DNA of 33,592 bases from Candidatus Taenaricola geysiri (GTDB taxonomy: Bacteria > Omnitrophota > Gorgyraeia > Taenaricolales > Taenaricolaceae). The DNA lies in assembly GCA_002781985.1 (NCBI GenBank), contig PFGP01000107.1:20011-53602 (forward strand), read 5' to 3'. The notes beneath the pieces were generated by a model. That model searched no databases. It was not told where the DNA came from and saw only the letters and a list, made by a program, of their open reading frames with translations. The translations under genes and the position numbers were made by a program. Positions 485 to 27,876 of the stretch are shown piece after piece; the stretch's first letter is position 1; each line of letters begins with the position of its first letter.

Positions 485-2155
485 ATGGATACGGATAAGC
501 TGTTAAAAAAAATAATATACGATGCATCCAGGAAGTTGTTTAAGGGCGTATCTATTACTGAGCAGAATATTATACTTCAAGCCCCCAAGCTGCCTGAGCA
601 TGGCCATATATCAACAAATATAGCTATGAGGGTTTCAAAGGCAGCCGGTATTTCCGGCATGGAAGCAGCCGGGAAAATAATAGGCGCTATACAGAGAAAT
701 ATTATAAAAACGCCGTTAAACGCGAAGATATCCCAGATATGCGCCAAAGAACCGGGTTTTATAAACTTTTTTTTTACGAATCTTGCCATTTATGACGTGC
801 TGGAGGATATAAATAAAAAAGGCGATATGTACGGCTCCTGCGACATGGGTAAAAATAGAAAGATTCAGATAGAATTTGTAAGCGCCAATCCTACCGGCCC
901 GTTAAGCGTAGCCCATGGCCGCCAGGCGGCTGTTGGCGATGCCCTGGGCAATATACTTGATTTTGCAGGATGGAAAGTGACCAGGGAATACTTCATAAAT
1001 GACCAGGGCAGGCAGATGGATATTTTAGGCGAATCCATACGCCAGCGATACCTTGAGTTTTTAGGGCAGAGTCATGAATTTCCCGAGGAGGGATATAAAG
1101 GCGAGTATATACGCGATATCGCCAAATTAGTAATGGATAAATATTCCGACAAATACATAAAGCCGGACGAGACTGCCAGGTCGTTTTTCAGGGATTACGG
1201 TTGCGAATTCATAATGAATGTTATAAAAAGCGAGCTTGAGGATTTTGGCGTTATCTTTGATGTCTGGACTTCACAGGCAAAACTTGTAAGTACAAGTAAA
1301 ATAGAAGGCGCCCTTAAAATTCTCAGGAAGAAAAAGTTTTTATACGAGTCCGAGGGCGCTGTATGGTTTAAATCAACGGCTTTCGGTGATGACAAGGACA
1401 GGGTTGTTATAAAAAGTGACGGTTCTTACACCTACCTTGCGCCTGACATAGCGTATCACCAGGACAAGTTCCAGCGCAAGTTTGATAAGGTTATAAATAT
1501 CTGGGGGCCTGACCATCACGGCTATATCCCCAGGATAACAGCTGCAGTGCAGGCGCTTGGATTTGCTAAAGATGCGATAACTGTTTTAATAGTGCAGCTT
1601 GCCACGTTATGGCGCGGCACTGAGCAAGTCCGCATGTCAACGCGCGCAGGCGAATTTGTAACGTTGCGGCAGGTAATGCAGGACACAGGAAAAGGCGCAG
1701 CAAGGTTTTTCTTTTTAGCCAGGAAGATATCAAGCCATCTTGATTTTGACATAGAGCTTGCAAAAAAACAGTCGCAGGAAAACCCTGTTTATTATGTTCA
1801 GTACGCGCATGCCAGGATATGCAATATAATAGAGCACGCAAATGCCGAAGGCCATAAAAATACAACAAATCCTGATTTTAAACTGCTCATTCAGCAGGAG
1901 GAACTTGATTTGATCAGGGAGCTTGGCGAATTTCCGTCGGTAATTGCCCTGTGCGCGCAAAGCCTTGAGCCATGCGGGCTTGTGTCTTACCTGCAGTCAA
2001 CGGCAAATAAATTCCATTCTTTTTATGACAAACACAGGGTTGTAAGCGATGATACAGAGCTGACCAAGGCGCGCCTTGCGCTGATTGCAGCTACTAAAAC
2101 AGTGTTATCTACCGCATTAAGGCTTCTCGGAGTTTCAGCGCCAATAAAGATGTAA
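485..2155 (+). CDS. argS: Arginine--tRNA ligase
   Basis: EFVSANPTGPLSVAHGR (HIGH-like motif), GDDKDRV, WGPDHHGY, RMSTRAG, NPVYYVQYAHARI and a C-terminal DALR domain ending GVSAPIKM. Confidence 0.98.
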   Translation: MDTDKLLKKIIYDASRKLFKGVSITEQNIILQAPKLPEHGHISTNIAMRVSKAAGISGMEAAGKIIGAIQRNIIKTPLNAKISQICAKEPGFINFFFTNLAIYDVLEDINKKGDMYGSCDMGKNRKIQIEFVSANPTGPLSVAHGRQAAVGDALGNILDFAGWKVTREYFINDQGRQMDILGESIRQRYLEFLGQSHEFPEEGYKGEYIRDIAKLVMDKYSDKYIKPDETARSFFRDYGCEFIMNVIKSELEDFGVIFDVWTSQAKLVSTSKIEGALKILRKKKFLYESEGAVWFKSTAFGDDKDRVVIKSDGSYTYLAPDIAYHQDKFQRKFDKVINIWGPDHHGYIPRITAAVQALGFAKDAITVLIVQLATLWRGTEQVRMSTRAGEFVTLRQVMQDTGKGAARFFFLARKISSHLDFDIELAKKQSQENPVYYVQYAHARICNIIEHANAEGHKNTTNPDFKLLIQQEELDLIRELGEFPSVIALCAQSLEPCGLVSYLQSTANKFHSFYDKHRVVSDDTELTKARLALIAATKTVLSTALRLLGVSAPIKM

Positions 2156-2158
2156 CCC

Positions 2159-4057
2159 ATGTTTGAATCCTTTAAAATCTATATAAATATTGAAATCTCT
2201 CCGTATGAATTAAGCAAAACCTTTGACCGCTACGGTTATAAGCGCCAGGAGCGCGTATCCGAGGAAGGCGATTTTGCGTCGCGCGGCGGCATACTTGATA
2301 TATTTATCGTTGGTTTTGATAACCCGGTGCGCATTGAGTTTGAGTCGGATAAGATAATCTCCATAAGAAGTTTTGATGTAGTTTACGGCGATTATACGGA
2401 TTACCATAATATGGTAATCCTTGTTTCTTTAAAGGGCACATCAAGGCGCCGTTTAAAAACAAGGATGGCTGATTTAGGCGAAGAGATTCCGATAAATAAT
2501 TTCGTTGATGTAGAGCCGGATGATTACGTGGTTCATGTTGAGTATGGGATAGGCGTTTATAAGGGCATTGAAAAGGTAAAGCTGGATAATAAGTATCATG
2601 ACAATATAGTAATAGAGTATGCGAATTCCGACAGGCTTTTTCTGCCTGTTAATGAAATACACCTGATACAGAAATATATAGGTTTTGAAGGAAGGCCGCC
2701 TAAGGTTTCCAGGCTTGGTTCAATGGTATGGAAAAGAGCCAAGCATGACACCAAAGAAGGCGTGCGTTCGCTTGCAAAAGAATTGCTTACTATACAGGCA
2801 AAAAGACAGGCGTTATCAGGTTTTAAATTTTCAAAAGATACCGAATGGCAGGCAGACCTTGAGGCTGATTTCATATTCAAGGAAACGCCGGATCAATTGC
2901 GCTGTATAAAAGAGCTTAAGAGCGACATGGAGTCTGAGCGGCCGATGGATCGGCTTTTATGCGGCGATGTGGGCTACGGAAAAACAGAAGTGGCTTTAAG
3001 AGCGGCATTTAAGGCTGTTATGGATAACAAGCAGGTAGCTATTTTAGTGCCCACCACAATACTTGCAGAACAGCATTATTTGACTTTTACCAGGCGCCTT
3101 GAAAAATTCGGCGTCTCTGTGCAGATGTTATCAAGGTTCAGGTCAACTGCAGAACAAAAAGAAATCCTAAAAGATGTTGCCGCAAGAGGTGTTGATATTA
3201 TTATCGGCACGCATAAACTTCTGTCTGATAATATGAAATTCAGGGATCTCGGGCTTGTTATTATTGACGAGGAGCAGCGTTTCGGGGTAAGGCATAAGGA
3301 AAAACTAAAAAAATTGCGTCATACAGTTGATGTGTTAACCATGACAGCAACTCCTATACCAAGGACATTATATATGTCGCTTATGGGCGCAAAGGATATG
3401 TCTATTTTAAATACGCCTCCTCCTGACCGGCAGCCGATTAAGACAAAGGTCTGCGCCTTTGACGATAATGTTATAAGACAGGCGATAAAAAGAGAGATTG
3501 ACAGAAAGGGCCAAGTATTTTTTATACATAACAGAATTGAAAATATAGACAAGGTTATGACGCATATAGCCAGGCTCGTTCCCCAGGCAAAAATAGCCCG
3601 GGCCCATGGCAGGATGTCAGCGCCTGAACTGGAAGAGGTTATGCTGGACTTTATTCACGGAAAGAAGAATGTGCTTGTCTCAACGAATATAATAGAGTCA
3701 GGTATAGATATACCCAACGCCAATACGATTCTGGTAAACCGCGCGGATACTTTCGGGCTTGCGGATTTATATCAGTTGCGCGGCAGGGTGGGCAGGTTTA
3801 AACAGGAGGCATGCGCGTATTTTCTTATTCCAAAAGGAGCTGTTCTTGACGCGCCTGCGAAAAAGCGCTTGCGCGCTGTCGCTAAATTCACTGCGCTAGG
3901 GAGCGGTTTTAAGATAGCCATGGAGGACCTGCAGCTTCGCGGCGCAGGCAACATATTGGGTTCGCAGCAGCACGGCTATGTATCAATGGTGGGTTTTGAC
4001 CTTTATTGCCGGCTTTTGCGCGAAGCAGTTTCAGAATGTGCTTGTGTTAAGCAGTGA
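2159..4057 (+). CDS. mfd: Transcription-repair coupling factor Mfd, compact 632-aa form
   Basis: UvrB-homology D2 segment (EGDFASRGGILDIF), CarD-like RID (DYVVHVEYGIGVY), GDVGYGKTEVA, DEEQRFG, TATPIPRT, QLRGRVGR and the TRG motif (DLQLRGAGNILG). Ends at GFDLYCRLLREAV with no D7 domain. Confidence 0.93.
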   Translation: MFESFKIYINIEISPYELSKTFDRYGYKRQERVSEEGDFASRGGILDIFIVGFDNPVRIEFESDKIISIRSFDVVYGDYTDYHNMVILVSLKGTSRRRLKTRMADLGEEIPINNFVDVEPDDYVVHVEYGIGVYKGIEKVKLDNKYHDNIVIEYANSDRLFLPVNEIHLIQKYIGFEGRPPKVSRLGSMVWKRAKHDTKEGVRSLAKELLTIQAKRQALSGFKFSKDTEWQADLEADFIFKETPDQLRCIKELKSDMESERPMDRLLCGDVGYGKTEVALRAAFKAVMDNKQVAILVPTTILAEQHYLTFTRRLEKFGVSVQMLSRFRSTAEQKEILKDVAARGVDIIIGTHKLLSDNMKFRDLGLVIIDEEQRFGVRHKEKLKKLRHTVDVLTMTATPIPRTLYMSLMGAKDMSILNTPPPDRQPIKTKVCAFDDNVIRQAIKREIDRKGQVFFIHNRIENIDKVMTHIARLVPQAKIARAHGRMSAPELEEVMLDFIHGKKNVLVSTNIIESGIDIPNANTILVNRADTFGLADLYQLRGRVGRFKQEACAYFLIPKGAVLDAPAKKRLRAVAKFTALGSGFKIAMEDLQLRGAGNILGSQQHGYVSMVGFDLYCRLLREAVSECACVKQ

Positions 4058-4070
4058 AACATGCTATAAT
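4042..4070 (+). promoter_or_regulatory. Putative sigma70 promoter for the PPIase genes
   Basis: TTGTGT(4042-4047)-17 nt-TATAAT(4065-4070) with an extended -10 TG; a GGAGG SD follows before ATG 4112. Confidence 0.65.
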
Positions 4071-4111
4071 TATCACTCAAATTTACCCCTAGAAAAATCG
4101 GAGGTTATTGC

Positions 4112-4951
4112 ATGAATAGAAATATAAGCATTGGTGTAGGTATTTTATTATGCTTGATTGCCATAGGGTGCAATCTTAAGCCGGGGGACAAGGTAATTGC
4201 CAGGGTAAACAACGAGGCGATAACAGAATCGGAATTTCAGGCCAGGATAAACCGCCTGCCGGCGTATTACCGCGCATTGGCAGTCGAGCAGAAGGAGAGG
4301 TTTTTAGACGAGATTATAAATGAAAAGCTTTTTTTGAAAGAGGCCTACAGGCTTCACGTTGACAGAAATAAAGAGGTGAAGGATCTTGTAGACGAGGCGC
4401 GCAAAAAGATAATAACCGCTAAATATATTGAAGACCAGATAAAGAAAAATACGAAAATAAGCAGCAAGGATATAGAGCAGTATTACGAACTTCACAAGAA
4501 GGAATTTGTCACGCTTGAACGCTACAGGGCCAGTCACATACTGGTCCTGACGCAGGATGAGGCCAAAAAGGTTTTGGTTCGCCTTAATAATGGCGAGGAT
4601 TTTTCAGCTGTAGCAAAAGAAGTCTCCATAGATCCATCCAAGACAAACGGCGGCGACCTCGGGTATTTTACAGAAGGCCAGATGATACCGGATTTTGAGG
4701 CTGCCTGCTTTAAGCTTGAGCCCGGCCAGACCAGCGATATTGTAAAAACACAGTTTGGTTACCACGTGATAAGGCTTACAGAAAAAATACCTGCGCACGA
4801 AAGGCCTTTAAACGAGGCCAGTGAACAGATAAAATCGCGCCTGATGGATGCAAAAAAGATCCAAAACCTGCAGGAGATAATAAAGGACCTGCGTTCAAGG
4901 GCAAAGATAACCGTATACAAGGAATCGTCAAATGACAAAGACAGCCAGTAG
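4112..4951 (+). CDS. Parvulin (PpiC-type) peptidyl-prolyl isomerase, PrsA-like lipoprotein
   Basis: Lipobox-like LIAIGC; RASHILV, GEDFSAVAKEVSID, GGDLGYF, MIPDFE and KTQFGYHVI motifs. Confidence 0.92.
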   Translation: MNRNISIGVGILLCLIAIGCNLKPGDKVIARVNNEAITESEFQARINRLPAYYRALAVEQKERFLDEIINEKLFLKEAYRLHVDRNKEVKDLVDEARKKIITAKYIEDQIKKNTKISSKDIEQYYELHKKEFVTLERYRASHILVLTQDEAKKVLVRLNNGEDFSAVAKEVSIDPSKTNGGDLGYFTEGQMIPDFEAACFKLEPGQTSDIVKTQFGYHVIRLTEKIPAHERPLNEASEQIKSRLMDAKKIQNLQEIIKDLRSRAKITVYKESSNDKDSQ

Positions 4952-5873
4952 AGCCGGATTTATTTTGGTTTTTTGTTTTTCTTTTTTGGCCCTGGCCGCG
5001 CCATATATATGTTTTGCTGAGGTGGTGGATAAGATAGCCGCAGTAGTCAATGACCAGACCATAACAGCTTCTGAGCTTGATGATGCAGCCAAGCCTATGG
5101 GCCAGCAAAAGGCCTCCAGCCAGGAGAGAAAAGAAGTGCTTGAGCGGCTAATTGAGGAAAAACTTATACTTCAGGAGGCCAAAAAGTTTAAAATGCCGGT
5201 TTCAAACGCAGAGATAGATGCTATGCTGAAACAGGTAAAATCAAAATTTCCGAATGAAAAGGCGTTTTATAAAGCCATGCAGGATCAGGGCCTGAACCTG
5301 TGGGAGCTGAAAAAGACGTATAAAGACCAGATTATGGTGAAAAAGATGGTAAGGCAGTATGTCAGGGAATACGCGAATATTACGCCTGTCCAGATAACAG
5401 AGTTTTATGATGCCCATATAGATGATTACAGCGTGCCGGACGCAGTGGACATATCGCAGATTTTGATAAAATATAAGCCAAACCATGAATCGCTAAAAAC
5501 TGAAAAAACGGCTTTGAAGATCGCGCAGATTCTTGATACCGGCGTTGATTTTGAATCTGTTGCCAGAAAATATTCCGAAGGCCCTAACAGGAAAAACAGC
5601 GGCCATATAGGGTTTGTAAATCGCGGGGATATGGCAAAAGAGATAGACGATGTGATTTCTAATATGAAGGAAGGCGAGATCTCAAAACCCATTAAACTTG
5701 CGGTTGGGTTTTCCATAATAAAGGTGAATTCAATAAGAAAAGAACAGCATATGCCCATTGAAGAGGTAAAAGGCGATATTGAAGACAGGCTCCTTGATGA
5801 AGCGGCAAAGAATGTGCTTGGTAAATGGGTCAAAGAGCTCAGGGAAAAGGCCTTTATATCCATAAAAGACTGA
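4932..5873 (+). CDS. SurA-like periplasmic chaperone/PPIase
   Basis: Signal peptide; SurA N-terminal VVDKIAAVVNDQTITASEL; a single parvulin domain (ISQILI, DFESVARKYS, GHIGFV); C-terminal WVKELREKAFI. Confidence 0.88.
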   Translation: MTKTASRAGFILVFCFSFLALAAPYICFAEVVDKIAAVVNDQTITASELDDAAKPMGQQKASSQERKEVLERLIEEKLILQEAKKFKMPVSNAEIDAMLKQVKSKFPNEKAFYKAMQDQGLNLWELKKTYKDQIMVKKMVRQYVREYANITPVQITEFYDAHIDDYSVPDAVDISQILIKYKPNHESLKTEKTALKIAQILDTGVDFESVARKYSEGPNRKNSGHIGFVNRGDMAKEIDDVISNMKEGEISKPIKLAVGFSIIKVNSIRKEQHMPIEEVKGDIEDRLLDEAAKNVLGKWVKELREKAFISIKD

Positions 5874-5917: not shown

Positions 5918-6322
5918 ATGGTTAGCAGGCTTAAAGACAATATAAGCTTGACCCTTGTTGAAGTTCTGATAGCCATGCTTATTTTAAGCACTTCAGCGGC
6001 AGGTGTGCTGGGTTCTTTCTCATATGCGTTTAAGTTTATACTTCGCGCAGGCGCCAAGATAGAGGCAATGAACTATGGCCGCAAGGCCATGGAGGCATAC
6101 AGGGCGTTGACTTTAGTCAGCGCTTCTGATCCGAGGTTGAGCGATACACCGGCAGTCGGAGAGGATGTTAAAGGCAGCGCCAGTCCGAATTCAATCGATA
6201 CAGGCGATACCTGGTTTTCGCCTGATTACGGGTCAGATGTAAAGGTGATTATTGCGGATTGGGCTAATAATGGCGCAACAGGCAAGCAGATAAGCGTAAA
6301 GGTGGATTGGAATGCGCCTTAA
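5918..6322 (+). CDS. Type IV prepilin-like protein (PilV/GspI-like minor pilin)
   Basis: Class III signal ...KDNIS|LTLVEVLIAMLIL with Glu at +5 followed by a hydrophobic helix; C-terminal KQISVKVDW strand typical of PilV-like proteins. Confidence 0.75.
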   Translation: MVSRLKDNISLTLVEVLIAMLILSTSAAGVLGSFSYAFKFILRAGAKIEAMNYGRKAMEAYRALTLVSASDPRLSDTPAVGEDVKGSASPNSIDTGDTWFSPDYGSDVKVIIADWANNGATGKQISVKVDWNAP

Positions 6323-6851
6323 TAATAAGAGCGGCATGTCGCTTTTAGAGATTACAATAGCAACGCTTATATTAAGCGTTGTGCTTATTTCAGCAGGATC
6401 TATTTATATAGCAGGCATAAGGGAGTTTAACAGGTCAGTTGAAGAGGCAAGGGCGCAGGTTGAGGCCTCTTTCGCGCTGGATCATATATTTCTGAACCTT
6501 ATGGGAGCCAAAGATATTATAACGTTTAATCCCGACAATATAGTTGTTACTGTTTACGATACGGTTACCAGTTCTGATAAAAAAATAAAATATGCGTTAA
6601 GCAACGGTAATAAAATCAATTTTTATCCGCCTTATTCAGGCAGCCCGGGTACGCCTGAGGTTATAGCCAGCGCTGATAGCATAGATCTGACATTTGCCAG
6701 GCCATTATGGAGAGATTCTTTGAATCCTCCTCCGCCGGATGGCACAGGCACTTATGTTAATAATTATGTTACAATAAATATTACAGTAACCAAAGGTAGG
6801 ATGAGCAAGACATTCAGCACAGGTGTTACTTTAAGGGGCATGAACCCGTAA
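6312..6851 (+). CDS. Type IV prepilin-like protein (PilW/GspJ-like minor pilin)
   Basis: NNKSG|MSLLEITIATLIL with Gly at -1, Glu at +5, a hydrophobic helix and a beta-rich C-terminus. Confidence 0.8.
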   Translation: MRLNNKSGMSLLEITIATLILSVVLISAGSIYIAGIREFNRSVEEARAQVEASFALDHIFLNLMGAKDIITFNPDNIVVTVYDTVTSSDKKIKYALSNGNKINFYPPYSGSPGTPEVIASADSIDLTFARPLWRDSLNPPPPDGTGTYVNNYVTINITVTKGRMSKTFSTGVTLRGMNP

Positions 6852-6858
6852 AACAATT

Positions 6859-7140
6859 ATGAATAACAAGGGCACCGCACTTATAGTTACCATGATTTAT
6901 TTGATTATAATCACGATAATATGCGCCGCGGTTTTGAGTTTTAGTTCAGGGCATTATAGATTCGTAAGCCAGAGGGTTGATAAGTTTCAGAACCTTTATT
7001 ATTCGGAAGGCGGGCTTTACCTTGGTTTGACCGGCGCCAGGGGTATTTATTATATACAGCCCGGCGATGCAAATACGACAGTAAATGTTACAAGTTCAAG
7101 CGGTAATCCGCAAGCCAGGCGCGATTATACCGCGTTGTAA
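6859..7140 (+). CDS. Short PilX/GspK-like minor pilin
   Basis: MNNKG|TALIVTMIY lacks Glu+5, the PilX/GspK hallmark; the NLYYSEGGL segment resembles the PilX AxYxAEAGL motif; only 93 aa. Confidence 0.65.
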   Translation: MNNKGTALIVTMIYLIIITIICAAVLSFSSGHYRFVSQRVDKFQNLYYSEGGLYLGLTGARGIYYIQPGDANTTVNVTSSSGNPQARRDYTAL

Positions 7141-8947: not shown

Positions 8948-9973
8948 TTGAAAAAGATAGCAGTAGTAGGCGCAACAGGATATGCCGGCGAAGAACTCAT
9001 AAAGATTTTATTAAAGCATCCTGCCTGCCAAATAACTTATATATGCGCCAAGATTGATAAGCCGCAAAAGTTCAGCGATATATTCTCCTGGGCCAAAGGC
9101 AGGCTTGATCTTGTTTGCGATAATCCTGATTTAAAGAAGCTAAATCAGAGCGCCGAAATCGTCTTTCTCGCGCTTCCTCATAGGACGTCTATGGAAATAG
9201 CCTCTGATATCTTAAAGGCAGGCAAAGTTGTTATTGATCTAAGCGCTGATTACAGGTTTAAGGATGTTGCGGAATATGAAAAATGGTATGTTGTAAAACA
9301 TAAGGATATGGCCAATTTAGATAAGGCTGTTTATGGGTTGCCTGAGCTTTATAAAGAAAAAATAAAAAATGCCAAATTGATAGCAAACCCGGGATGTTAT
9401 CCTACAGCGGCCATTTTATCGCTTGCGCCGCTGTTGAAAGAAAAGATATGCCAGGCAGAAGGTATAATAATTGATGCAAAAACCGGCTACAGCGGCGCAG
9501 GAAGAAAGCCTGGTAATGATCCTTTTATGAGCCAGATAAATGATAATCTCAAGGCATATAAGATAGATGCGCATCAGCATTCTCCTGAAATTGATCAGGA
9601 ATTATCAAATGTTGCAGGCGAAAGCGTGAAGGTTGTTTTTGTGCCGCATTTACTGCCGATAGAAAGAGGGATTTTAGAGACGATATATGTAAAAGCTAAA
9701 AGCGAAAAGCTAAAAGCGAAAAGTTTGATTGAATTATATAATAAATTTTACAAGGATGCGCCGTTTGTGAGAATAAAGAACGAAGACGAATTCCCGCAGC
9801 TTAGCGATGTGCAGAACACGAATTTCTGTGATATAGGCGTAAAGGTAAACAGTGACGGCAAATTTATTATTATTGTCTCTGCCATAGACAATCTTACCAA
9901 GGGCGCCGCAGGCCAGGCAGTGCAGAATATGAATATTGTATGCGGTTTTAACGAAACAGAAGGTTTATTATGA
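8948..9973 (+). CDS. argC: N-acetyl-gamma-glutamyl-phosphate reductase
   Basis: GATGYAG, FLALPH, IDLSADYR, IANPGCYPT, SGAGR, DNLTKGAAGQAVQNMN. Confidence 0.98.
   Translation: MKKIAVVGATGYAGEELIKILLKHPACQITYICAKIDKPQKFSDIFSWAKGRLDLVCDNPDLKKLNQSAEIVFLALPHRTSMEIASDILKAGKVVIDLSADYRFKDVAEYEKWYVVKHKDMANLDKAVYGLPELYKEKIKNAKLIANPGCYPTAAILSLAPLLKEKICQAEGIIIDAKTGYSGAGRKPGNDPFMSQINDNLKAYKIDAHQHSPEIDQELSNVAGESVKVVFVPHLLPIERGILETIYVKAKSEKLKAKSLIELYNKFYKDAPFVRIKNEDEFPQLSDVQNTNFCDIGVKVNSDGKFIIIVSAIDNLTKGAAGQAVQNMNIVCGFNETEGLL
9691..9725 (+). repeat. Five tandem heptamers inside argC
   Basis: AAAAGCT AAAAGCG AAAAGCT AAAAGCG AAAAGTT, encoding KAKSEKLKAKS. Confidence 0.85.
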
Positions 9974-11178
9974 AAATGATAAAAGGCGGTGTTTGCGCTC
10001 CCAAAGGGTTTTTGGCGTCAGGCATATATTCCGGTATTAAAAAAAATGCCTTCAGCAAGGACCTTGCCTTGATATTTTCCGAGGCGATATGCACAGCGGC
10101 CGGTGTTTTTACAACTAATAAGATAAGGGCGGCTTGTATAAAAATATCAGGGGTTCATTTAAAGAATAATAAAGCGCAGGCCATAATAGTCAATAGCGGC
10201 AACGCAAATTGCTGCACAGGTGAACAGGGTTTTAGAGACGCAGAGCAAACAGCAGAGGTTGTTGCTAGGGCCCTTGATCTGAAGGCTTCTCTTGTGCTGA
10301 TTTCTTCAACCGGCGTTATAGGTAAACTTATGCCTATGGCAAAACTCATAAATCATATTCCGGCTTTGGTTGAACAATTAAACACGAGAAAGAGCAGAAA
10401 TGCGGCAGAGGCTATAATGACTACAGACAAGGTTGTAAAAGAGGCCGCAATCAGTTTTAAAATTGGCGGCAGGAAAGTTACTATAGGAGCTATTGCAAAA
10501 GGTTCAGGCATGATTTATCCTAATATGGCTACCATGCTTGGTTTTGTAACTACTGATGTGGCTATAGACGTAGCCGCGCTAAAGGCCGCGCTTAAATGTT
10601 GCGTGAACAATACGTTTAACTGTATAAGCGTTGATGGCGACACAAGCACGAATGACATGGTTTTAATCCTGGCAAATGCAGCCGCAGGCAACAAAAGGAT
10701 TACGCTTAACGCAAAAGCGGATTTTGAAAAGTTCAAAAACGCCCTGATGCAGGTACTTTTATATCTGGCAAAGAAAATAGCGAAAGACGGCGAAGGCGCC
10801 ACAAAACTTATCCAGGTTTGCGTAAAAGGCGCTTTAAATGATAAAGACGCCAGGCGCGCTGCGGCAACTGTATGCAATTCCAATCTGGTTAAGACAGCTA
10901 TTTATGGTGAAGATGCCAATTGGGGCAGGATTGCCGCGGCTTTAGGCAGAAGCAAAGCGGCATTAAAAGAGGAAAAATTATCCATATATATTGACAGGGT
11001 TAAGATATTTTCAAAGGGCCTTCCTGCGGATGCCGATGAAGGCGCCTTGAAAAATATTTTATCAAAAGATGAGATTAAGATAACTGTTGATTTAGGGCTT
11101 GGCAAGGCAGGCATAACCATGTGGACCTGCGATTTATCCGAGGAGTATGTAAGGATAAACGCGAAGTACAGAACATGA
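9970..11178 (+). CDS. argJ: Glutamate N-acetyltransferase / ornithine acetyltransferase ArgJ
   Basis: GVFTTN, NSGNANC, SSTGVIG, KGSGMIYPNMATML, DGDTSTND, DGEGATK, WTCDLSEEYVRINAKY. Confidence 0.98.
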   Translation: MKMIKGGVCAPKGFLASGIYSGIKKNAFSKDLALIFSEAICTAAGVFTTNKIRAACIKISGVHLKNNKAQAIIVNSGNANCCTGEQGFRDAEQTAEVVARALDLKASLVLISSTGVIGKLMPMAKLINHIPALVEQLNTRKSRNAAEAIMTTDKVVKEAAISFKIGGRKVTIGAIAKGSGMIYPNMATMLGFVTTDVAIDVAALKAALKCCVNNTFNCISVDGDTSTNDMVLILANAAAGNKRITLNAKADFEKFKNALMQVLLYLAKKIAKDGEGATKLIQVCVKGALNDKDARRAAATVCNSNLVKTAIYGEDANWGRIAAALGRSKAALKEEKLSIYIDRVKIFSKGLPADADEGALKNILSKDEIKITVDLGLGKAGITMWTCDLSEEYVRINAKYRT

Positions 11179-12029
11179 AAGACAGTATTAAAAAAGCAGA
11201 CATATTAATAGAAGCCATCCCTTATATAAGAGCGTTTAAGGATAAGGTCGTTGTTATAAAATACGGCGGCAGCGCGATGGAGGACATTGCTTCAAGGCAG
11301 AGCCTTTTAAGGGACATCATCTTTATGAATGCCGTAGGGATTAAGCCTATCCTTATACACGGAGGCGGGCCTGCAATAAGCCATAAATTAAAACAGCTTG
11401 GGAAAAATGTCAAGTTTGTAAACGGTAAAAGGGTGACAGACGAGCATACCATAAAGATCGTTGACAGGGTGCTTTCGAAAATCAATAAACAGATAGCCCA
11501 GGAGATAATTGATTTGGGCGGCTCGGCAAAACGCCTTCTGGCCAAAGATAATAATCTGGTGCTTGCAAAATGCAAAAATTCCAAACTTGGTTTTGTCGGC
11601 ACGCCAGTTTCAATAAATACAAGATTTATAAACAGGGTGCTTAAAAAAGGTTTTATACCGGTTATCTCTTCTGTCGGCAGGGGCTATGCAGATAGAAGGT
11701 TATATAATATAAACGCCGATGATGTAGCTTCTTTTACGGCAAAATCACTAAAGGCTGAAAAATTTGTTTTATTTACAAATGTTGAAGGTATATTAAAGGA
11801 CAAGGCAGATCAGGCTTCGCTTTTGTCTACCATGAAGGCAAGTCAGGCCAGGCTTCTTATTGCTTCAGGCGTAATATCCGAAGGCATGATACCTAAGGTT
11901 CAGGCATGCGTTGATGCGTTAAAGGCAGGCGTGAAGAAGGCGCATATAATAGGCGCGTATGTGCCGCATTCTTTGCTTCTTGAGATTTTTACAAAAAAAG
12001 GCGCCGGAACTGAGATTACCAGAGAGTAA
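11175..12029 (+). CDS. argB: Acetylglutamate kinase
   Basis: IKYGGSAM, HGGGPAI, RVTD, YNINAD, GMIPKV, HSLLLEIFT. Start placed at the ATGA overlap with the argJ stop (11175), not at 11121. Confidence 0.97.
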   Translation: MKDSIKKADILIEAIPYIRAFKDKVVVIKYGGSAMEDIASRQSLLRDIIFMNAVGIKPILIHGGGPAISHKLKQLGKNVKFVNGKRVTDEHTIKIVDRVLSKINKQIAQEIIDLGGSAKRLLAKDNNLVLAKCKNSKLGFVGTPVSINTRFINRVLKKGFIPVISSVGRGYADRRLYNINADDVASFTAKSLKAEKFVLFTNVEGILKDKADQASLLSTMKASQARLLIASGVISEGMIPKVQACVDALKAGVKKAHIIGAYVPHSLLLEIFTKKGAGTEITRE

Positions 12030-12032
12030 AAA

Positions 12033-13232
12033 ATGGATACCAAAAATATTATATCAAAATACGAAAAGTTTGTGGCGCCCACATACACCAGGCTGCCGAT
12101 AATCCTTACAAAGGGCGAGGGTTCAAGGGTCTGGGATTCAGAAGGCGCTGAATATCTTGATTTTTTCCCGGGCTGGGCAGTAAGCGGCTTGGGCCATTGC
12201 CATCCGATGGTGGTTAGCGCCATAAAAAAACAAGCGGGCTCAATGCTTCACGTATCGAATAATTATTATAACCTGCTTCAGGGCGAGCTTGCAGCGAAGA
12301 TAGTTGAAAACTCTTTTGATTCAAAGGTGTTTTTTGCAAATTCCGGAGCTGAGGCAAACGAGGCGGCTATTAAGCTGGCAAGAAGGTATTTTCAGGTTGT
12401 AAAAAAAATAGACAAATACGAAATCATCACAATGCAGAATTCTTTTCACGGCAGGACGCTTACAACCATAACAGCGACTGCGCAGCCTAAATACCAGCAG
12501 GGGTTTGCGCCATTGCCCGGAGGTTTTAAATATGTGCCTTTTAATGATTTTAAGGCGCTTGAAGCCGCTATTACTGATAAAACCGCTGCTATAATGTTTG
12601 AATTGATACAAGGCGAGGGCGGTATAAATGTTGCGGATAAAGATTATGTTTTAAAAGTGAGAAAACTGTGCAATGAAAAAGATATCATATTAATAATCGA
12701 TGAAGTGCAGACAGGAATCGGCAGGACAGGCACTATGTTTGCCTTCAGCCAGTATGGCATTATACCTGATGTAATGACCCTGGCCAAATCTTTAGGCGGC
12801 GGTATGCCTATAGGCGCAACTGTTATAGCAAAAAAGTATTCTGATGTATTGCAGCCTGGCACGCATGCCTCGACTTTCGGCGGCAGCCCTATAGTTTGCG
12901 CCGCAGCGCTGGCTGTTTTTGAGGCAATAAAAAAAGAGAACCTGCTTTTAAATGTGAAAAAACAGGGCGATTATATTAAAGGCCTGCTTCTTGGCTTAAA
13001 GGATAAATATAAATTGATAAAAGAACTAAGAGGCCCGGGCCTGATGCTTGGAGTTGAGCTTAATATAGAGGGAAAGCAGATCGTGCGGGATTGTATGGCC
13101 ATGGGGCTTTTGATTAACTGCACTCATGATACGGTTTTAAGGATAATGCCTCCCTTGGGCGTTACTGCGAAAGAAATAGACAAAGCGATAAAAATATTAG
13201 ATGAAGTTTTTAAAAAGACAGAAAGAGCTTAA
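12033..13232 (+). CDS. argD: Acetylornithine aminotransferase (class III PLP enzyme)
   Basis: NSGAEANEAAIK, SFHGRT, ELIQGEGG, DEVQTG.GRTG, TLAKSLGGG, HASTFGG. Confidence 0.96.
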   Translation: MDTKNIISKYEKFVAPTYTRLPIILTKGEGSRVWDSEGAEYLDFFPGWAVSGLGHCHPMVVSAIKKQAGSMLHVSNNYYNLLQGELAAKIVENSFDSKVFFANSGAEANEAAIKLARRYFQVVKKIDKYEIITMQNSFHGRTLTTITATAQPKYQQGFAPLPGGFKYVPFNDFKALEAAITDKTAAIMFELIQGEGGINVADKDYVLKVRKLCNEKDIILIIDEVQTGIGRTGTMFAFSQYGIIPDVMTLAKSLGGGMPIGATVIAKKYSDVLQPGTHASTFGGSPIVCAAALAVFEAIKKENLLLNVKKQGDYIKGLLLGLKDKYKLIKELRGPGLMLGVELNIEGKQIVRDCMAMGLLINCTHDTVLRIMPPLGVTAKEIDKAIKILDEVFKKTERA

Positions 13233-13233
13233 C

Positions 13234-14154
13234 ATGAAGAAAGATTTGATATCAATAAAAGACCTTTCGGTAGACGAGATAAAGCATATACTTGCTGTGA
13301 CCGACAAGTTAAAGGTAAGCCCGAAGGATACGGGCACGCCTTTGGCAGGCAGGTCCATGGGAATGATTTTTCAGAAACCATCCAACAGGACAAGGGTTTC
13401 CTTTGAGGTGGGCATGGCGCAGCTTGGTGGGCATGCGATATATCTGGGGCCGGATACCATAAAATTGGGAGAGAGGGAAAAGACCTCTGATATTGCTAAT
13501 ACGCTTTCAAGATACCTGGATATCCTGGTGGCAAGGGTGTTTTCGCATTCAGATATAGTAGAGCTTGCAAAACATTCAACCATACCGGTTATAAACGGTT
13601 TAAGCGATACTGAACACCCATGCCAGGCGCTGGCTGATGTCTATACGATAAAAGAAAAGGCAGGCAGTTTTAAAGGCGTAAAGCTTGTTTTTATCGGAGA
13701 CGGCAATAATGTGCTGCATTCGCTTTTGTATGCGTGCGCCAAGCTTGGAATTAATTTTACCGTTGTGACGCCTAAAAATTATCAGCCCAACAGAGAGATT
13801 TACAACCAGGCGCTTTTGTTTACAAAGGATTCCGGGGCAAAATTAGAGCTTCTTAACGATCCGAAAGCAGCGGTTAAAGGAGCGGATTTCATATATACCG
13901 ATGTATGGGCAAGCATGGGCCAGGAGACTCAGGCAAAGAAAAAGAAAAAGGCGTTTAAGGGTTTTTGCGTAAACGATAGACTTGTTTTGCTTGCCAAACA
14001 GAATTGCAAGATAATGCATTGCCTTCCGGCTCACAGGGGCGAGGAGATTACAGACAGCGTTATAGACGGGCCGAATTCAATAGTTTTTGATGAAGCTGAA
14101 AACAGGCTGCATGTGCAAAAGGCTGTTTTGTTGTGGTTGTTGGGAGAGAAATAG
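13234..14154 (+). CDS. argF: Ornithine carbamoyltransferase
   Basis: KPSNRTRVSFE, HPCQALAD, GDGNNV, YTDVWASMG, HCLPAHRG, EAENRLH. The likely start is ATG 13234 (MKKDLISI). Confidence 0.97.
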   Translation: MKKDLISIKDLSVDEIKHILAVTDKLKVSPKDTGTPLAGRSMGMIFQKPSNRTRVSFEVGMAQLGGHAIYLGPDTIKLGEREKTSDIANTLSRYLDILVARVFSHSDIVELAKHSTIPVINGLSDTEHPCQALADVYTIKEKAGSFKGVKLVFIGDGNNVLHSLLYACAKLGINFTVVTPKNYQPNREIYNQALLFTKDSGAKLELLNDPKAAVKGADFIYTDVWASMGQETQAKKKKKAFKGFCVNDRLVLLAKQNCKIMHCLPAHRGEEITDSVIDGPNSIVFDEAENRLHVQKAVLLWLLGEK

Positions 14155-14158
14155 TTTA

Positions 14159-14221
14159 CCCCACACTTCCGTGTGGGGAATGTACTGTGTAGCGGCGGAT
14201 ACCACACGCGGAAGCGTGTGG
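14159..14221. repeat. Inverted pair of REP-like GC-rich hairpins
   Basis: CCCCACAC-TTCC-GTGTGGGG (14159-14178) and CCACACGC-GGAA-GCGTGTGG (14202-14221). Confidence 0.75.
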
Positions 14222-14232
14222 AGGAGGAGACC

Positions 14233-15414
14233 ATGAAAAAAATAATTTTAGCATATTCCGGCGGATTAGATACATCCTGCATAGTCAGGTGGCTTACTGA
14301 TAGGGGCTGGGATGTTGTGTGTTTTGTCGCTGATTTAGGCCAGGGGTTAGGTAAAGGCGAGAATTTTGCCAGGATAAAGCAAAGGGCAATCGCAGCCGGC
14401 GCATCCAGGGTTTACATCAAAGATTTAAAAGACGAATTTGTCAAAGATTTTGTTATGTCTGCGCTTAAGGCAAACGCAGTATATGAAGGAAAATATCTTT
14501 TAGCAACCGCTTTGGGCAGGCCTTTGATTGCAAAATATCTGGTTGATATCGCGCACAAAGAAAAAGCGACTGCCATTGCCCATGGTTGCACAGGCAAGGG
14601 TAATGACCAGGTGAGAATAGAGGTCACTGCAAATATCCTTGATCCGAAATTAGAGATTATAGCGCCTGTAAGGACCTGGGAGCTTAAGTCAAGGGAACAG
14701 GAAATAGATTATGCGATTAAGAAAAAAATTCCAATAGATGTCAGCAAGAAAAAGCCGTACAGTTTGGATAAAAATCTCTGGGGCGTATCTATTGAGTCAG
14801 GCATCTTAGAGGATCCGCAGAATGAGCCGCCTGAGGATTGTTATCAGTGGACTGTATCGCCCCAAAAGGCGCCTAATAAGGCAACTTATGCAGAGATAAC
14901 ATTTGAAAAAGGGGTGCCTAAAAAATTAGACGGCAAGGCATATACAGGCGTTAAACTTATTGACAAATTAAACGCATTAGGCGCAAAGAATGCAATAGGC
15001 AGGGTTGATTGCATAGAAAACAGGCTTGTGGGCATAAAATCAAGAGAGATTTATGAAGCGCCTGCGGCCACTATCCTTTATACAGCGCATAAGGAGCTTG
15101 AGGCGCTTGTTTTGGATAAAGATCTTGCGCACTACAAAGAAAGCAGGTCAGGCCTGTACGGCGAGCTTATTTATAACGGTTTGTGGTATTCTGATATGAG
15201 GATTGCCATAGATAAGTTTATTCAGCAGACTCAGAAAAGAGTTACAGGCATAATCAAGCTTAAGCTATATAAAGGTAATTGCGCTGTAGCATCTAGAAAA
15301 TCGCCCTATTCATTATACAAAAAGCGCCTTGCGACGTATTCCGAAGGCGATAAGTTCGATCAGAAACTGGCGGAAGGATTTATTAAAATATACGGTATGC
15401 CGTTTAAAAAATGA
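14233..15414 (+). CDS. argG: Argininosuccinate synthase
   Basis: LAYSGGLDTS, HGCTGKGNDQVR, ENRLVGIKSREIYEAP. Start at ATG 14233 after an AGGAGG SD. Confidence 0.98.
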   Translation: MKKIILAYSGGLDTSCIVRWLTDRGWDVVCFVADLGQGLGKGENFARIKQRAIAAGASRVYIKDLKDEFVKDFVMSALKANAVYEGKYLLATALGRPLIAKYLVDIAHKEKATAIAHGCTGKGNDQVRIEVTANILDPKLEIIAPVRTWELKSREQEIDYAIKKKIPIDVSKKKPYSLDKNLWGVSIESGILEDPQNEPPEDCYQWTVSPQKAPNKATYAEITFEKGVPKKLDGKAYTGVKLIDKLNALGAKNAIGRVDCIENRLVGIKSREIYEAPAATILYTAHKELEALVLDKDLAHYKESRSGLYGELIYNGLWYSDMRIAIDKFIQQTQKRVTGIIKLKLYKGNCAVASRKSPYSLYKKRLATYSEGDKFDQKLAEGFIKIYGMPFKK

Positions 15415-15422
15415 GGTAGAAT

Positions 15423-16613
15423 ATGACTAAAAAATTATGGGGTGGAAGGTTTACTAAAAACACAGACCCGTTTGTAGAGAAGTTTACAAGGAGCCTGCAT
15501 ACGGATATCGCGCTTTTTGAGTATGATGTAACAGCAAGCATAGCGCATGCGAAGATGCTTGGTAAATGCAAAGTCATACCAAAAAAAGACGCCCAAAAAA
15601 TAGTCAAAGGCCTTGTCAGCATATTAAACGAATTTGAAAAGGGCAAAACAAAAATAGATCAGTCAGCCGAGGATGTGCATACGCTTGTGCAGGCCTTACT
15701 TGAAAAGAAGATAGGCGCGCCTGCAAAAAAGCTTCACACAGCAAGATCCAGAAACGACCAGGTTTCAACAGACACAAGGATGTTTGCCAAGGATTATATA
15801 ATTGTTTTGATTGAAGTTGTAAAAGATTTACAGGCATCGCTTGACTCTGTTGCCAATAGGCACAAAACTGTATCAATGCCCGGTTATACGCATATGCAGC
15901 ATGCGCAGCCGGTTTTGTTTAAAAACTATACCGGAGCTTACAGGGAAATGTTTGAAAGGGATAAAGAAAGGCTTTCTGAAATATATAAAAGGATAGATAT
16001 TCTGCCCCTGGGAAGTTGCGCTTTAGCAGGCACAAGTTTGGCTATTGACAGAAAATTTGTTGCCAAAGAACTTGGGTTTTCAAAGGTTTCGCAGAATACA
16101 CTTGATGCTGTAAGCGACAGGGATTTTATAATAGAGATATTAAGCGCCGCAGCATTAACGGGTATGCACATGTCAAGGATATCAGAAGACCTTATTATCT
16201 GGTCCACATCAGAGTTTAATTTTGTGGATATCGACGAGGCATTCTGCACAGGCAGCTCCATTATGCCGCAGAAGAAAAATCCTGACGTACTTGAATTAAT
16301 CAGGGGTAACGCAGGCAGATTATACGCTAACCTTATGTCAATGCTGGTTACTATGAAGGGCCTGCCGCTTACATATAACAGGGATATGCAGCTTGATAAA
16401 GCGCCGCTTTTTGATTCATTAAACATAATTAAAGATCAGCTTGAAATTTTGTCAAAGCTTATCAGGACTATGAAGCTGAATAAGGCGGCCATAGACAGGC
16501 AATTGCAGGACCCGGGGTTGTATGCGACTTTAATGGCAGAAAGATTGGTAAAAAAAGGTGTATCGTTTAAGGATGCCCACAGAATAGTAGGAAAGAATTA
16601 TGCACGACTTTAA
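15423..16613 (+). CDS. argH: Argininosuccinate lyase, C-terminally shortened (396 aa)
   Basis: LWGGRF, HTARSRNDQ, PGYTHMQHAQP, GSSIMPQKKNPD, LPLTYNRDMQ; ends soon after FKDAHRIVG. Confidence 0.95.
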   Translation: MTKKLWGGRFTKNTDPFVEKFTRSLHTDIALFEYDVTASIAHAKMLGKCKVIPKKDAQKIVKGLVSILNEFEKGKTKIDQSAEDVHTLVQALLEKKIGAPAKKLHTARSRNDQVSTDTRMFAKDYIIVLIEVVKDLQASLDSVANRHKTVSMPGYTHMQHAQPVLFKNYTGAYREMFERDKERLSEIYKRIDILPLGSCALAGTSLAIDRKFVAKELGFSKVSQNTLDAVSDRDFIIEILSAAALTGMHMSRISEDLIIWSTSEFNFVDIDEAFCTGSSIMPQKKNPDVLELIRGNAGRLYANLMSMLVTMKGLPLTYNRDMQLDKAPLFDSLNIIKDQLEILSKLIRTMKLNKAAIDRQLQDPGLYATLMAERLVKKGVSFKDAHRIVGKNYARL

Positions 16614-17841
16614 ATTTAAAAATAAAAAGCTTTACTGTGAAAACATAGACGTTGAATATCTGGCAAGGCGTTTCGGCACCCCGCTTTATGTCTACAGCTA
16701 TAGCACCTTGATAAATCATTATCTTAAGTTAAAGGACGCGTTTAAGAGTATAAACCCGTTGATTTGTTATTCGGTAAAGGCCAATTCTAATATGGCGATA
16801 ATCGAATCGCTTATTAATAAGGGCGCAGGCCTTGATGTTGTCTCAGGCGGTGAGCTTTTCAGGGCGCTTAAGGCAGGATGTCCGGCTAATAGAATTGTTT
16901 ATGCGTCTGTCGGAAAGACCGATAACGAAATAAAAGAGGCGCTTAGCGCCGGAATCTTATTTTTCAATGTTGAATCTTTGCCTGAGCTTGAGAATATAAA
17001 CCGTATTGCCAGAAAACTTGATAAGGCCGCCAGGGTCGCGATAAGGATAAATCCTGACGTAGAGGCAAAGACGCATAAGTTTATTACAACAGGAAAGATA
17101 ACAAATAAGTTTGGCATAGATTTAAACAGCGCTTACAATATCCTTTTGATGCGTTCTAAGTTTTCCAATATAGATATATCCGGGCTGCATATTCATATAG
17201 GTTCACAGATAACCAACGGCGAGCCTTTTGTTGCCGCTATAACCAAGATTATAAAGTTTATAGGCCAGCTTAAGAAAAAAGGTATAGGGCTTGAATACCT
17301 TAATATAGGCGGCGGCCTGGGCATTGTGTATGATAAAGAAACGCCTCAGACAGCCATGAAGTTTGCCAAAAAGGCGCTGCCGCTTCTTAAGGCCACAGGT
17401 TTAAAGATTATTATGGAGCCGGGCAGGTTTATCGTCGGTAACGCAGGCATTATGGTTACAAAGGTTTTGTATGTCAAGCCAACGCCCAAGAAGAAGTTTA
17501 TAATAGTGGATGCAGGCATGAATGATCTGATACGCCCGGCATTATACGGGGCGTATCATCAAATTTTACCGCTTAGTTTGGTATCAGGTAGAAGAGAAAA
17601 GGTTGATGTAGTCGGGCCTATTTGTGAAAGCGGAGATTTTTTTGCCAAGGATAGAATTATGCCCAAGGTTTCAGAAGGAGATTATATAGCGGTAATGAGC
17701 GCAGGCGCCTATGGTTTTACCATGGCAAGTAATTATAACTCGCGGCGCAGGGCTTGCGAGATTCTTGTATCCGGAACCGATGTGTCTGTGATAAGAGACA
17801 GGGAGACTTACGGGGATTTGATTCGCAATGAAAAATATTAA
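16600..17841 (+). CDS. lysA: Diaminopimelate decarboxylase
   Basis: GTPLYVY, YSVKANS (PLP lysine), HIHIGSQI, EPGRFIVG, VGPICESGD, GAYG..MASNYN. Confidence 0.98.
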   Translation: MHDFKFKNKKLYCENIDVEYLARRFGTPLYVYSYSTLINHYLKLKDAFKSINPLICYSVKANSNMAIIESLINKGAGLDVVSGGELFRALKAGCPANRIVYASVGKTDNEIKEALSAGILFFNVESLPELENINRIARKLDKAARVAIRINPDVEAKTHKFITTGKITNKFGIDLNSAYNILLMRSKFSNIDISGLHIHIGSQITNGEPFVAAITKIIKFIGQLKKKGIGLEYLNIGGGLGIVYDKETPQTAMKFAKKALPLLKATGLKIIMEPGRFIVGNAGIMVTKVLYVKPTPKKKFIIVDAGMNDLIRPALYGAYHQILPLSLVSGRREKVDVVGPICESGDFFAKDRIMPKVSEGDYIAVMSAGAYGFTMASNYNSRRRACEILVSGTDVSVIRDRETYGDLIRNEKY

Positions 17842-25098: not shown

Positions 25099-27876
25099 AT
25101 GAGCGATTATATTACAATAAAAGGCGCGAAAGAACACAATTTAAAGAATCTGAATTTACAGATTCCGCGCAATAAGCTTGTTGTTATTACCGGATTAAGC
25201 GGTTCAGGTAAATCTTCCCTTGCCTTTGATACCATATATGCTGAAGGCCAGCGCAGATATGTCGAGAGCCTGTCCGCGTACGCGAGGCAATTTTTAGAAC
25301 AACTGCAAAAACCGGATGTAGAGCACATAGAAGGTATCTCACCGGCGGTTTCCATTGAGCAGCGCGCAGCAGGCTCAAACCCCCGTTCAACGGTAGCCAC
25401 TCAAACAGAGATATATGACTATCTTAGATTGTTATTTGCGCGCATAGGCATCCCGCATTGTCCGAGGTGCGGCAGAAAAATTCAGGGCCAGTCATCTGAG
25501 CAGATAGTCAGGCAAGTCCTGACGTTTCCGCAAGGAAAAGAAATCATAACATTAGCGCCTTTAGTCAGGGGAAGAAAAGGCGAGCACGTGCAATTACTGC
25601 AAGATGTAAAAAAACAGGGTTTTGTGCGTGTGCGCGTCGACGGTAAAATGATAGACCTTTCCGGCAAGATTATACTCGATAAAAAGATAAAACATGACAT
25701 AGAGATTGTTATAGACAGGCTGGTAATCAAACCCGGCATAAAAAAGCGCCTTACTGAATCCGTTGAAACAGCGCTTAAGGTAGGATCCGGCCTTGTGATG
25801 ATAAATGACAGAAATATCTTATTCAGTCAGCAGCATGCTTGCCCCGAATGCGGCATAAGCCTTGAAGAGATAGAGCCGCGCGTATTTTCATTTAACAGCC
25901 CTTATGGCGCATGTCCTAAATGTAGCGGCCTTGGCACCAGGGTTGAAATGGATCCTGATCTTGTTGTGCCGGATAGGGATAAATCTTTAAGGCAAGGCGC
26001 CATAGCGCCATGGCATAAGACAGGCAAAAACATATTTTTATATTACCGCGGCATGTTAAATGAATTGGCCAACAGGCGTAATATAAATATGGATACGCCT
26101 TTTAAAAAATTAGAGCAGCGCGTAAGGGATTTGATACTTTATGGTTCTGATGACGAGATCTGGGGTAAGAAATATGAAGGCGTTATACCGAATTTAGAGC
26201 GCAGGTTTGTCCAGACAGACAGTGATTACATGCGTAATGAAATAAATAAGTATATGTCAACCTCGCCATGCGTTTCCTGCCGCGGGGCGCGGTTAAAGCC
26301 TGAGTCGCTTGCAGTAAAGATAGCCGATAAAAATATCCATGAACTAACGCAATTTTCAATAACTAAGGTAAAAGAGTTTTTTGCGGGCCTTAAATTAACA
26401 GAGACAGAAAAAACAATAAGCCGCCATATATTAAAAGAGATAAATGCGCGGCTTACATTCATGAATGATGTTGGCCTTGGTTATCTTACGCTTGATCGCA
26501 TAAGTTCAACGCTTTCAGGCGGCGAGGCGCAAAGGATACGCCTGGCAACCCAGATAGGCGCGGCTTTAGTGGGAGTTTTATATATTTTAGATGAACCTTC
26601 AATAGGCCTACACCAGAAAGATAATACAAAACTTTTGGATACATTAAAGGCCTTAAGGGATTTGGGCAATACCTTAATTGTCGTCGAGCATGACGAAGCT
26701 ACAATCCGCTCGGCAGACTATATTATAGACTTAGGCCCTGGCGCAGGCAAACATGGCGGCCACGTTGTCGCGCAGGGCAGTTTAAAAAATATTTTAAAAT
26801 CAAAAAGATCTCTTACAGCCAGATATTTAAATGGAAAGCTGCAGATACCTGTGCCAAAGAAAAGAAGAGAGCTCATAAAAGATAAATCCCTGATTATAAA
26901 AGGCGCGGCAGAACATAACTTAAAAAACATTGATGTAAAAATACCTCTCGGGCTTTTTGTTTGCGTAACAGGCGTTTCAGGCTCAGGAAAATCTACGTTA
27001 GTTGATGAAATTTTATACAGGGCGCTTGCAAAAAAATTATACAAGTCAAAGATAAAACCCGGAAAACATAAAGAGATCCAGGGCATTGAGAATATAGACA
27101 AGGTTATAGTGATAGATCAGTCGCCTATAGGCCGCACCCCGCGCTCAAACCCGGCGACATACACAGGCGCCTATTCGCAGATACGCGATTTATTCGCGAA
27201 GCTGCCTGAATCCCGGATACGCGGTTTTAAGCCGGGCAGGTTCAGTTTTAATGTTAAGGGCGGCCGTTGCGAGGCATGCCAGGGCGACGGAGTGAAAAGA
27301 ATAGAGATGCATTTTTTGCCGGATGTGTATGTTACCTGCGAGGTTTGCGCGGGTAAACGTTTCAGCGGCCAGACGCTGGAGGTAAAATACAAAGGCAAGT
27401 CGATTTCAGACGTTTTGGGTATGACCGTCGAGGAAGCGCTGAATTTATTTGAAAATATACCGCAGATAAAAGAGAAGTTTAAAACTCTGAATGATGTTGG
27501 CCTTGGGTATATTCAGCTCGGCCAATCAGCAACGACTTTATCAGGCGGCGAGGCGCAGCGCATAAAGCTGTCAACGGAACTGTCAAAACGCCAGACAGGA
27601 AAGACGTTTTACATTTTAGATGAACCGACAACAGGCCTGCATTTTGCGGATATCGACAGGCTGCTTTCTGTCCTGCACCGCTTAGTTGACGCAGGCAATA
27701 CGGTTTTAGTTATAGAGCACAATTTAGATGTAATTAAAACAGCAGACTATATTATTGACCTTGGCCCAGAGGGCGGGGACAAGGGCGGCCATATTATTGC
27801 TGAAGGAACGCCTGAGGACATAATCAAATCAAAATTTTCCTACACCGGCCAGTATCTTTTCAGGCATATTTCATAG
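25099..27876 (+). CDS. uvrA: Excinuclease ABC subunit A
   Basis: [23 protein letters not shown], two LSGGEAQRI signatures, GVSGSGKST and zinc-binding CxxC pairs. Confidence 0.99.

Follow-up and report, generated by a model that had tools for sequence, protein, structure and literature searches.

In the Omnitrophota genomes that we searched, the transcription-repair coupling factor Mfd occurs as a short form that is real, intact and found across the phylum. It consists of the UvrB-homology domain D2, the RNA polymerase-binding domain RID, the translocase motor and the hook helices, with D1a, D1b, D3 and D7 missing. The representative studied here, 632 aa in length, is encoded in a 33,592-nucleotide stretch of Candidatus Taenaricola geysiri DNA (the window) and is the only Mfd of its genome. 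The short forms have a single origin, retain an intact motor and are under purifying selection in the relatives of this organism. We hold with moderate confidence that Mfd was cut down once, in an ancestor of the Omnitrophota, and that the product likely acts as a transcription-repair coupling factor without a clamp. As an architecture, it is a new variant of Mfd.

Results

Domain architecture of the short Mfd

A Pfam scan of the 632-aa protein returned UvrB_inter (residues 10-83), CarD_TRCF_RID (119-174), DEAD (243-404) and Helicase_C (442-547), with no match to TRCF (PF03461), the family of D7; an earlier note, made from the sequence alone, had anticipated exactly this set. The protein scores 880.7 bits with TIGR00580 (cut-off 800) and does not reach the NF007966 cut-off of 1329. 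On alignment, it covers E. coli Mfd stretches 141-197 and 454-985 and no others. The D2 fold, RID, relay helix, D5-D6, TRG and hook are common to the short form and to canonical Mfd (E. coli, 1148 aa; 2EYQ, 6X26), but without D1a, D1b, D3 and D7 of the eight-domain protein there is no D2-D7 clamp. Coordinates of all features are given in Table 1.

Table 1. Features of the short mfd, its neighbours and uvrA in the window
Feature	Positions	Strand	Basis
argS, upstream neighbour, same frame as mfd	485..2155	+	Pfam, flank reading
mfd, short Omnitrophota form, 632 aa	2159..4057	+	ORF, Pfam, TIGR00580, alignment to E. coli Mfd
D2, UvrB-homology / UvrA-interaction fold, aa 2-94	2162..2440	+	PF17757, structure model
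Short basic D2-RID linker replacing D1b and D3, predicted flexible	2441..2494	+	model pLDDT, gap lengths
RID (D4), RNA polymerase beta-binding domain, aa 119-174	2513..2680	+	PF02559, E 7.9e-17
Relay helix, aa 189-218, with W191 (= E. coli W550)	2723..2812	+	model, conservation
SF2 translocase D5 + D6; Walker A K275, DEEQ 370-373	2885..3799	+	PF00270, PF00271
TRG helical hairpin; R570, R594 (R594 = E. coli R953)	3851..3958	+	alignment, model, conservation
Hook helices, aa 602-630, with V611 (= E. coli I970)	3962..4048	+	alignment, model, conservation
Extended -10-like site TGCTATAAT, possible promoter of downstream genes	4062..4070	+	motif count
Two SurA/PPIC-type PPIase genes, usual downstream neighbours of mfd	4112..5873	+	Pfam, relatives' loci
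uvrA, 925 aa, UvrB-binding domain aa 131-237, expected D2 partner	25099..27876	+	PF17760, E 1.9e-39

The modelled D2 superimposes on E. coli Mfd 125-217 (2B2N; Z 18.1, rmsd 1.1, 92 residues aligned) and on the Mfd chain of the UvrA complex 4DFC (Z 14.8, rmsd 1.6, 85 aligned). The earlier note was right to place a D2 segment beside RID, motor and TRG, but this segment measures about 92 aa, not ~100, and is joined to RID via a linker of about 20 aa, not directly. The D2-RID gap is 15-27 aa in short forms versus 165-305 aa in full-length Mfd, and the linker has a pLDDT of about 50-66 in the D2+RID model. At the other end, 3-18 residues follow the hook in short forms, compared with 111-234 in full-length Mfd; because the two final helices are the hook helices, the protein ends where D7 would start.

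A model of the whole protein, built with 111 sequences, has a mean pLDDT of 80.8 and a pTM of 0.69, and its residues 75-632 match 6X26 457-990 (Z 50.4, rmsd 4.5, 520 aligned). In a separate model of residues 1-190 (pLDDT 81.9, pTM 0.57), D2 and RID are each well folded and their mutual placement is not fixed. RecG shares a related motor, the relay helix, TRG and a similar size (1GM5: Z 38.1, rmsd 4.1, 419 aligned). Unlike RecG, the 632-aa protein has RID and D2 and no wedge family in the Pfam scan; it misses all RecG cut-offs (best 414 bits versus 718), and a separate RecG-like gene is found on contig C77 of the source genome. Membership in the Mfd family is indicated by an RID ahead of the motor, a RecG-like SF2 motor with intact Walker A, DExx and TRG motifs, and a place in the tree among Mfd orthologues.

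Integrity of the reading frame

No stop codon interrupts the mfd frame. The argS gene ends with TAA at 2153-2155, followed by CCC and the mfd ATG, so that mfd starts 3 nt past the argS stop, as originally read. A 1191-aa open frame for the source genome proved to be argS and mfd read across this TAA and is not a fusion. Downstream, 54 nt separate the end of mfd from the start of the first PPIase gene at 4112. Profiles for D1a, D1b, D3 and D7, built from 120 full-length Mfd proteins, matched nothing in the three plus-strand frames of 1500-2250 and 3950-4700 (best E 0.049), which bears out the claim that no frameshifted remainder lies beside the gene. Contig X21 of another run (four runs) covers window positions 1900-4300 in one piece, with no indel and no joint.

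A promoter had also been proposed after mfd. The site TGCTATAAT is a perfect extended -10, of which the window holds 6 versus 2.7 expected, but a sigma-70 consensus scan of the window does not list it; a promoter here is plausible and unproven.

Distribution across the Omnitrophota

Among 301 genomes drawn across the Omnitrophota, 276 carry mfd above the family cut-off, and a search for D7 was negative in all 301; its control was positive in 10 of 14 reference genomes, and the same search found D7 in 119 of 121 Verrucomicrobiota genomes. The length of Mfd was 628-664 aa at each of 50 loci examined, made up of the 30 best-scoring of the phylum survey and 20 picked to include genomes outside the window's class. 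The contiguous D2-RID form recurs at ten more complete loci, of which nine belong to families that lie outside this class; four further mfd loci are cut by contig or locus ends. The 120 best homologues (sought in the range 347-1106 aa) measure 620-664 aa in 119 cases, the remaining one being a 521-aa piece, and all ten with a named taxon are Omnitrophota. In the genomes searched, the short form prevails throughout the lineage, and no close relative was seen to carry full-length Mfd.

A wider comparison covered 80 named loci from many phyla, the best 80 of 599 confirmed, drawn from more than 600 candidates. D7 is present in 72 of the 80; seven of the eight lacking it are labelled Omnitrophota and one Planctomycetales. 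This last locus (L114:1573-3474, labelled uncultured Planctomycetales) has a short mfd with two ORFs as long as PPIase genes behind it; because it nests inside the Omnitrophota clade, its record is probably mislabelled. Among the best 150 representatives, D2 and RID are contiguous in 20, all closest to the short family; four of these clusters bear a taxon name, in each case Omnitrophota. One 637-aa Atlas cluster has WOR-3 as its commonest taxon, on 4 records.

The missing domains were also sought as separate genes. Against all six frames of the source genome, the D1a, D1b, D3 and D7 profiles matched UvrB alone, with nothing for D7, and the D1a, D1b and D7 profiles found nothing at the 50 mfd loci. 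A split gene or a D7 or D1 acting in trans was considered and rejected, as neither the genome, the 301-genome D7 survey nor the 50 loci yielded a candidate; the partner subunit that the earlier note allowed for is thus not seen. The upstream neighbours of mfd vary among relatives and are ordinary genes (argS, secDF, an aminotransferase, a pseudouridine synthase). No published account of Mfd in Omnitrophota was found in a literature search that covered mostly papers open without subscription.

Origin and selection

A tree was built from the RID-to-hook core (82 rows, LG+G4, midpoint root), with 23 of the 80 named loci omitted because they were incomplete or redundant. The 23 short forms in it fall on one side of a branch with support 100/99. 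Together with a group of full-length Planctomycetota/Verrucomicrobiota Mfd (16 rows, four of them labelled otherwise or unlabelled), they form a larger group with support 97/97. Under the midpoint root, which is not independently fixed, this placement fits vertical descent and one loss in the ancestor of the phylum. An ancestral short form was suggested by a first tree, in which a RecG outgroup fell among the short forms. That tree is unreliable because RecG sits on a branch of 9.4 changes per site, and in the broader tree, from which RecG was omitted, the short clade sits amid full-length Mfd. Acquisition of D2 from UvrB, hinted at by TG in place of QRS, is unlikely as well, given that the rest of D2 follows the Mfd and not the UvrB pattern. 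At Verrucomicrobiota loci (L116-L186), the D2-RID stretch is mostly 165-206 aa, compared with 220-305 aa for the majority of other phyla; D1b/D3 may thus have been trimmed to some degree before the loss in Omnitrophota.

For 11 pairs of relatives, none of which includes the window's copy, dN/dS is 0.019-0.134 over the whole gene and 0.014-0.19 over D2 alone; ten of the 11 pairs have a dS above 1, and the sole unsaturated pair gives 0.045. D2 changes at up to about 2.4 times the rate of the motor. The end branch of the window's copy, at 0.25, is near the median of 0.22. In its relatives, mfd is therefore under purifying selection, and the idea of a naturally streamlined Mfd stands, with neither relaxed selection there nor a D7 anywhere in the survey.

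These data also bear on whether the 632-aa frame is a gene remnant in decay, an artefact of assembly or one half of a split gene with the remaining domains encoded at another place. The source genome (1.27 Mb, 96.6% complete) is in 152 contigs, which leaves room for one gene to have been missed. Nevertheless, genes of this length and with these ends, without D7, are found repeatedly across the phylum, an independent contig spans the gene, only UvrB answers to the D1a, D1b and D3 profiles in the source genome, and the dN/dS values are low. We regard such an origin as highly improbable; the phylum survey already refutes it, barring a D7 too divergent for both PF03461 and the D7 profile.

Conserved residues in the motor, hook-relay contact and D2

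Conservation was assessed in 177 short sequences (170 distinct D2 rows). The Walker A Lys and the Asp and Glu of the DE motif are invariant in all 177, and the TRG arginines are essentially so. The equivalent of E. coli W550 is Trp in 177/177, and that of I970 is Val, Ile or Leu in 176/177. The short Mfd reads AKE where the aligned Pseudomonas-type sequence reads IKE, a position that we take to be the RNA polymerase beta-subunit site. When the W550-I970 contact is broken in E. coli, Mfd displaces polymerase without RID contact (PMC3488230). Given this role, conservation of both residues argues that the short forms retain a second control node. With the relay helix and both hook helices in place, the constitutive activity that the earlier note considered possible stays conjectural.

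In D2, R42 and R58 correspond to E. coli R165 and R181, E62 occupies the position of F185, and F53 and H83 are lineage-specific. The R181 equivalent is Arg in every short form and the R165 equivalent in 140 of 177. By contrast, an aromatic residue occupies the F185 position in just 8 of 177, versus 13/13 Planctomycetota/Verrucomicrobiota and 55/56 other full-length Mfd, and the QRS motif that follows the last D2 hairpin is lost, two respects in which the short form also departs from canonical Mfd. The same position is aromatic in 25 of 31 Omnitrophota UvrB. In E. coli, a triple change of R165, R181 and F185, or loss of the UvrB-homology module, abolishes coupling (PMC3025350); this evidence comes from a triple mutant and from proteins retaining D1a and D1b. 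A D2 that recruits UvrA, as the earlier note had it, is in line with the UvrB-like fold and with R42 and R58, but with F185 gone lineage-wide and R165 incompletely kept, the case is weaker than was claimed.

The altered D2 face raises the possibility that the protein is a motor that clears stalled or roadblocked RNA polymerase and is uncoupled from repair, with D2 kept for stability or for another partner. Erosion of F185 and the acidic motif after it, mostly kept in UvrB of the same organisms, is in keeping with this, and natural repair-blind Mfds are reported for Buchnera, Wigglesworthia and the chloroplast (PMC3488230). Yet those proteins have lost D2 in settings that lack UvrABC, whereas here D2 is kept, its R181 equivalent is invariant, it is under purifying selection, and UvrABC is present. 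We consider an uncoupled motor fairly unlikely.

Two positions are conserved in the short forms only: residue 53 is aromatic in 177/177 (4/69 full-length Mfd), residue 83 is His in 159/177 (0/69), and UvrB has no such conserved residue at either. Autoinhibition might accordingly have been re-invented, with D2 docking on the motor or relay helix through these new residues, or with an unrelated protein masking D2 in trans, so that the protein on its own is inactive. According to Smith et al., cells are unlikely to contain an Mfd that is active all the time (PMC3488230). On the other hand, the D2-RID model (pTM 0.57) shows no fixed packing, no dedicated neighbour accompanies mfd, and Thermus thermophilus lives with an unclamped Mfd (PMC13453472). 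A renewed off-state strikes us as unlikely.

Excision-repair partners

The coupling reading calls on UvrA, UvrB and UvrC, and genes for all three are present in the source genome. UvrA of the window matches 4DFC chain B and 3FPN chain A. Across the phylum, uvrA was found in 30/30 genomes tested, uvrB in 282/301 and uvrC in 35 of 38 chosen genomes. Among 248 good genomes, mfd is also missing in 5 of the 7 without uvrB versus 3 of the 241 with it; this co-loss is a hint only, because it comes from five genomes in four families, and G003 and G295 keep mfd while uvrB was not found. In three genomes that are 92-96% complete (G083, G254 and G292), mfd, uvrB and uvrC are jointly missing; in three others (G081, G005 and G009), uvrB and uvrC are kept and mfd was not found.

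At 397 aa, UvrC of the source genome (L192:221-1414, G000 contig C120) is short as well. It carries GIY-YIG, UVR and RNase H domains; its match to TIGR00194 leaves out about 135 positions in the middle (233-369), and an HhH is lacking at its C-terminus. A split TIGR00194 match recurs in 35/35 relatives with uvrC (L193-L204 among them), and the HhH end is present in some only. In genomes outside the window's class (L102-L108), UvrA shows divergence in the C-terminal half of its UvrB-binding domain, which is a place to look for co-evolution with D2.

Comparison with engineered and natural Mfd variants

Removal of D7 or of the N-terminal module from E. coli Mfd (ΔD7, ΔBHM) derepresses the motor (PMC3025350), and MfdΔD7, which keeps D2, supports coupled repair in vitro and in vivo (Manelyte 2010, PMC3025350). 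As described, MfdΔD7 retains D1a, D1b and D3, and ΔBHM loses D2, whereas the Omnitrophota form is natural and phylum-wide. Among the E. coli constructs considered here, none keeps D2 alone or carries it alone on a tether. T. thermophilus Mfd needs no closed clamp to work and moves along naked DNA (Brugger 2026, PMC13453472; 13JQ, 6M6A); as far as that source describes it, this 978-aa protein has all domains and its clamp is open through disorder, whereas that of the Omnitrophota form is deleted. Truncated Mfd proteins of Buchnera, Wigglesworthia and Arabidopsis chloroplasts keep the hook-relay interface (PMC3488230, PMC13453472). On these accounts they have lost the UvrB-homology module and kept D7, and UvrABC is lacking. 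The Omnitrophota form is their mirror image, with D2 kept, D7 lost and UvrABC present.

Discussion

If the short Mfd is a clamp-less coupling factor, its cycle can be sketched by analogy with E. coli. RID would bind the beta subunit of RNA polymerase, and the motor would travel along upstream DNA and push the stalled polymerase off. D2, unmasked on its tether of ~20 residues, would then hand the site over to UvrA2B. Relative to wild-type E. coli Mfd, weaker restraint of the ATPase and translocase is predicted, and specificity for polymerase would rest on the kept hook-relay contact together with RID. The relay helix, which takes part in a topological wrap proposed for Mfd processivity (PMC7864632), is also kept in the short Mfd. 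D2 is the one N-terminal piece retained despite deletion of everything around it. In the most speculative step, loss of the F185 aromatic would lower the affinity of D2 for free UvrA and so might substitute for masking by D7.

More tentatively, the whole phylum may run transcription-coupled repair with a four-domain Mfd in which a weaker, retuned D2-UvrA interface takes the place of D7 masking, and excision repair may have been slimmed jointly, with an internally shortened UvrC. Were this so, D1a, D1b, D3 and D7 would be dispensable regulation, and a short-tethered D2 would suffice for hand-off to UvrA. In current structural models, D1-D3 and D7 have an elaborate part in keeping D2 hidden until the presence of a lesion is likely (PMC7864632). 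The clamp is believed to guard against futile ATP use, untimely removal of polymerase and trapping of UvrA. Having shed four of the eight domains long ago while keeping the gene under selection, the phylum provides a natural test of which parts are needed, and the 632-aa protein offers a ready-made minimal construct for structural and single-molecule studies. The finding is moderately surprising, given that engineered ΔD7 functions and that a natural Mfd with an open clamp was reported in 2026.

Other genes of the window drew attention in passing. Three short pilin-like genes at 5918-7140, with weak N-methylation and PilX matches, follow the two PPIases. Positions 8948-24754 hold a long same-strand run of genes for arginine, lysine/DAP, folate, pantothenate and NAD biosynthesis. 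Argininosuccinate lyase (15423-16613), at 396 aa, matches only positions 3-27 of a 69-position C-terminal Pfam domain and so may be C-terminally shortened.
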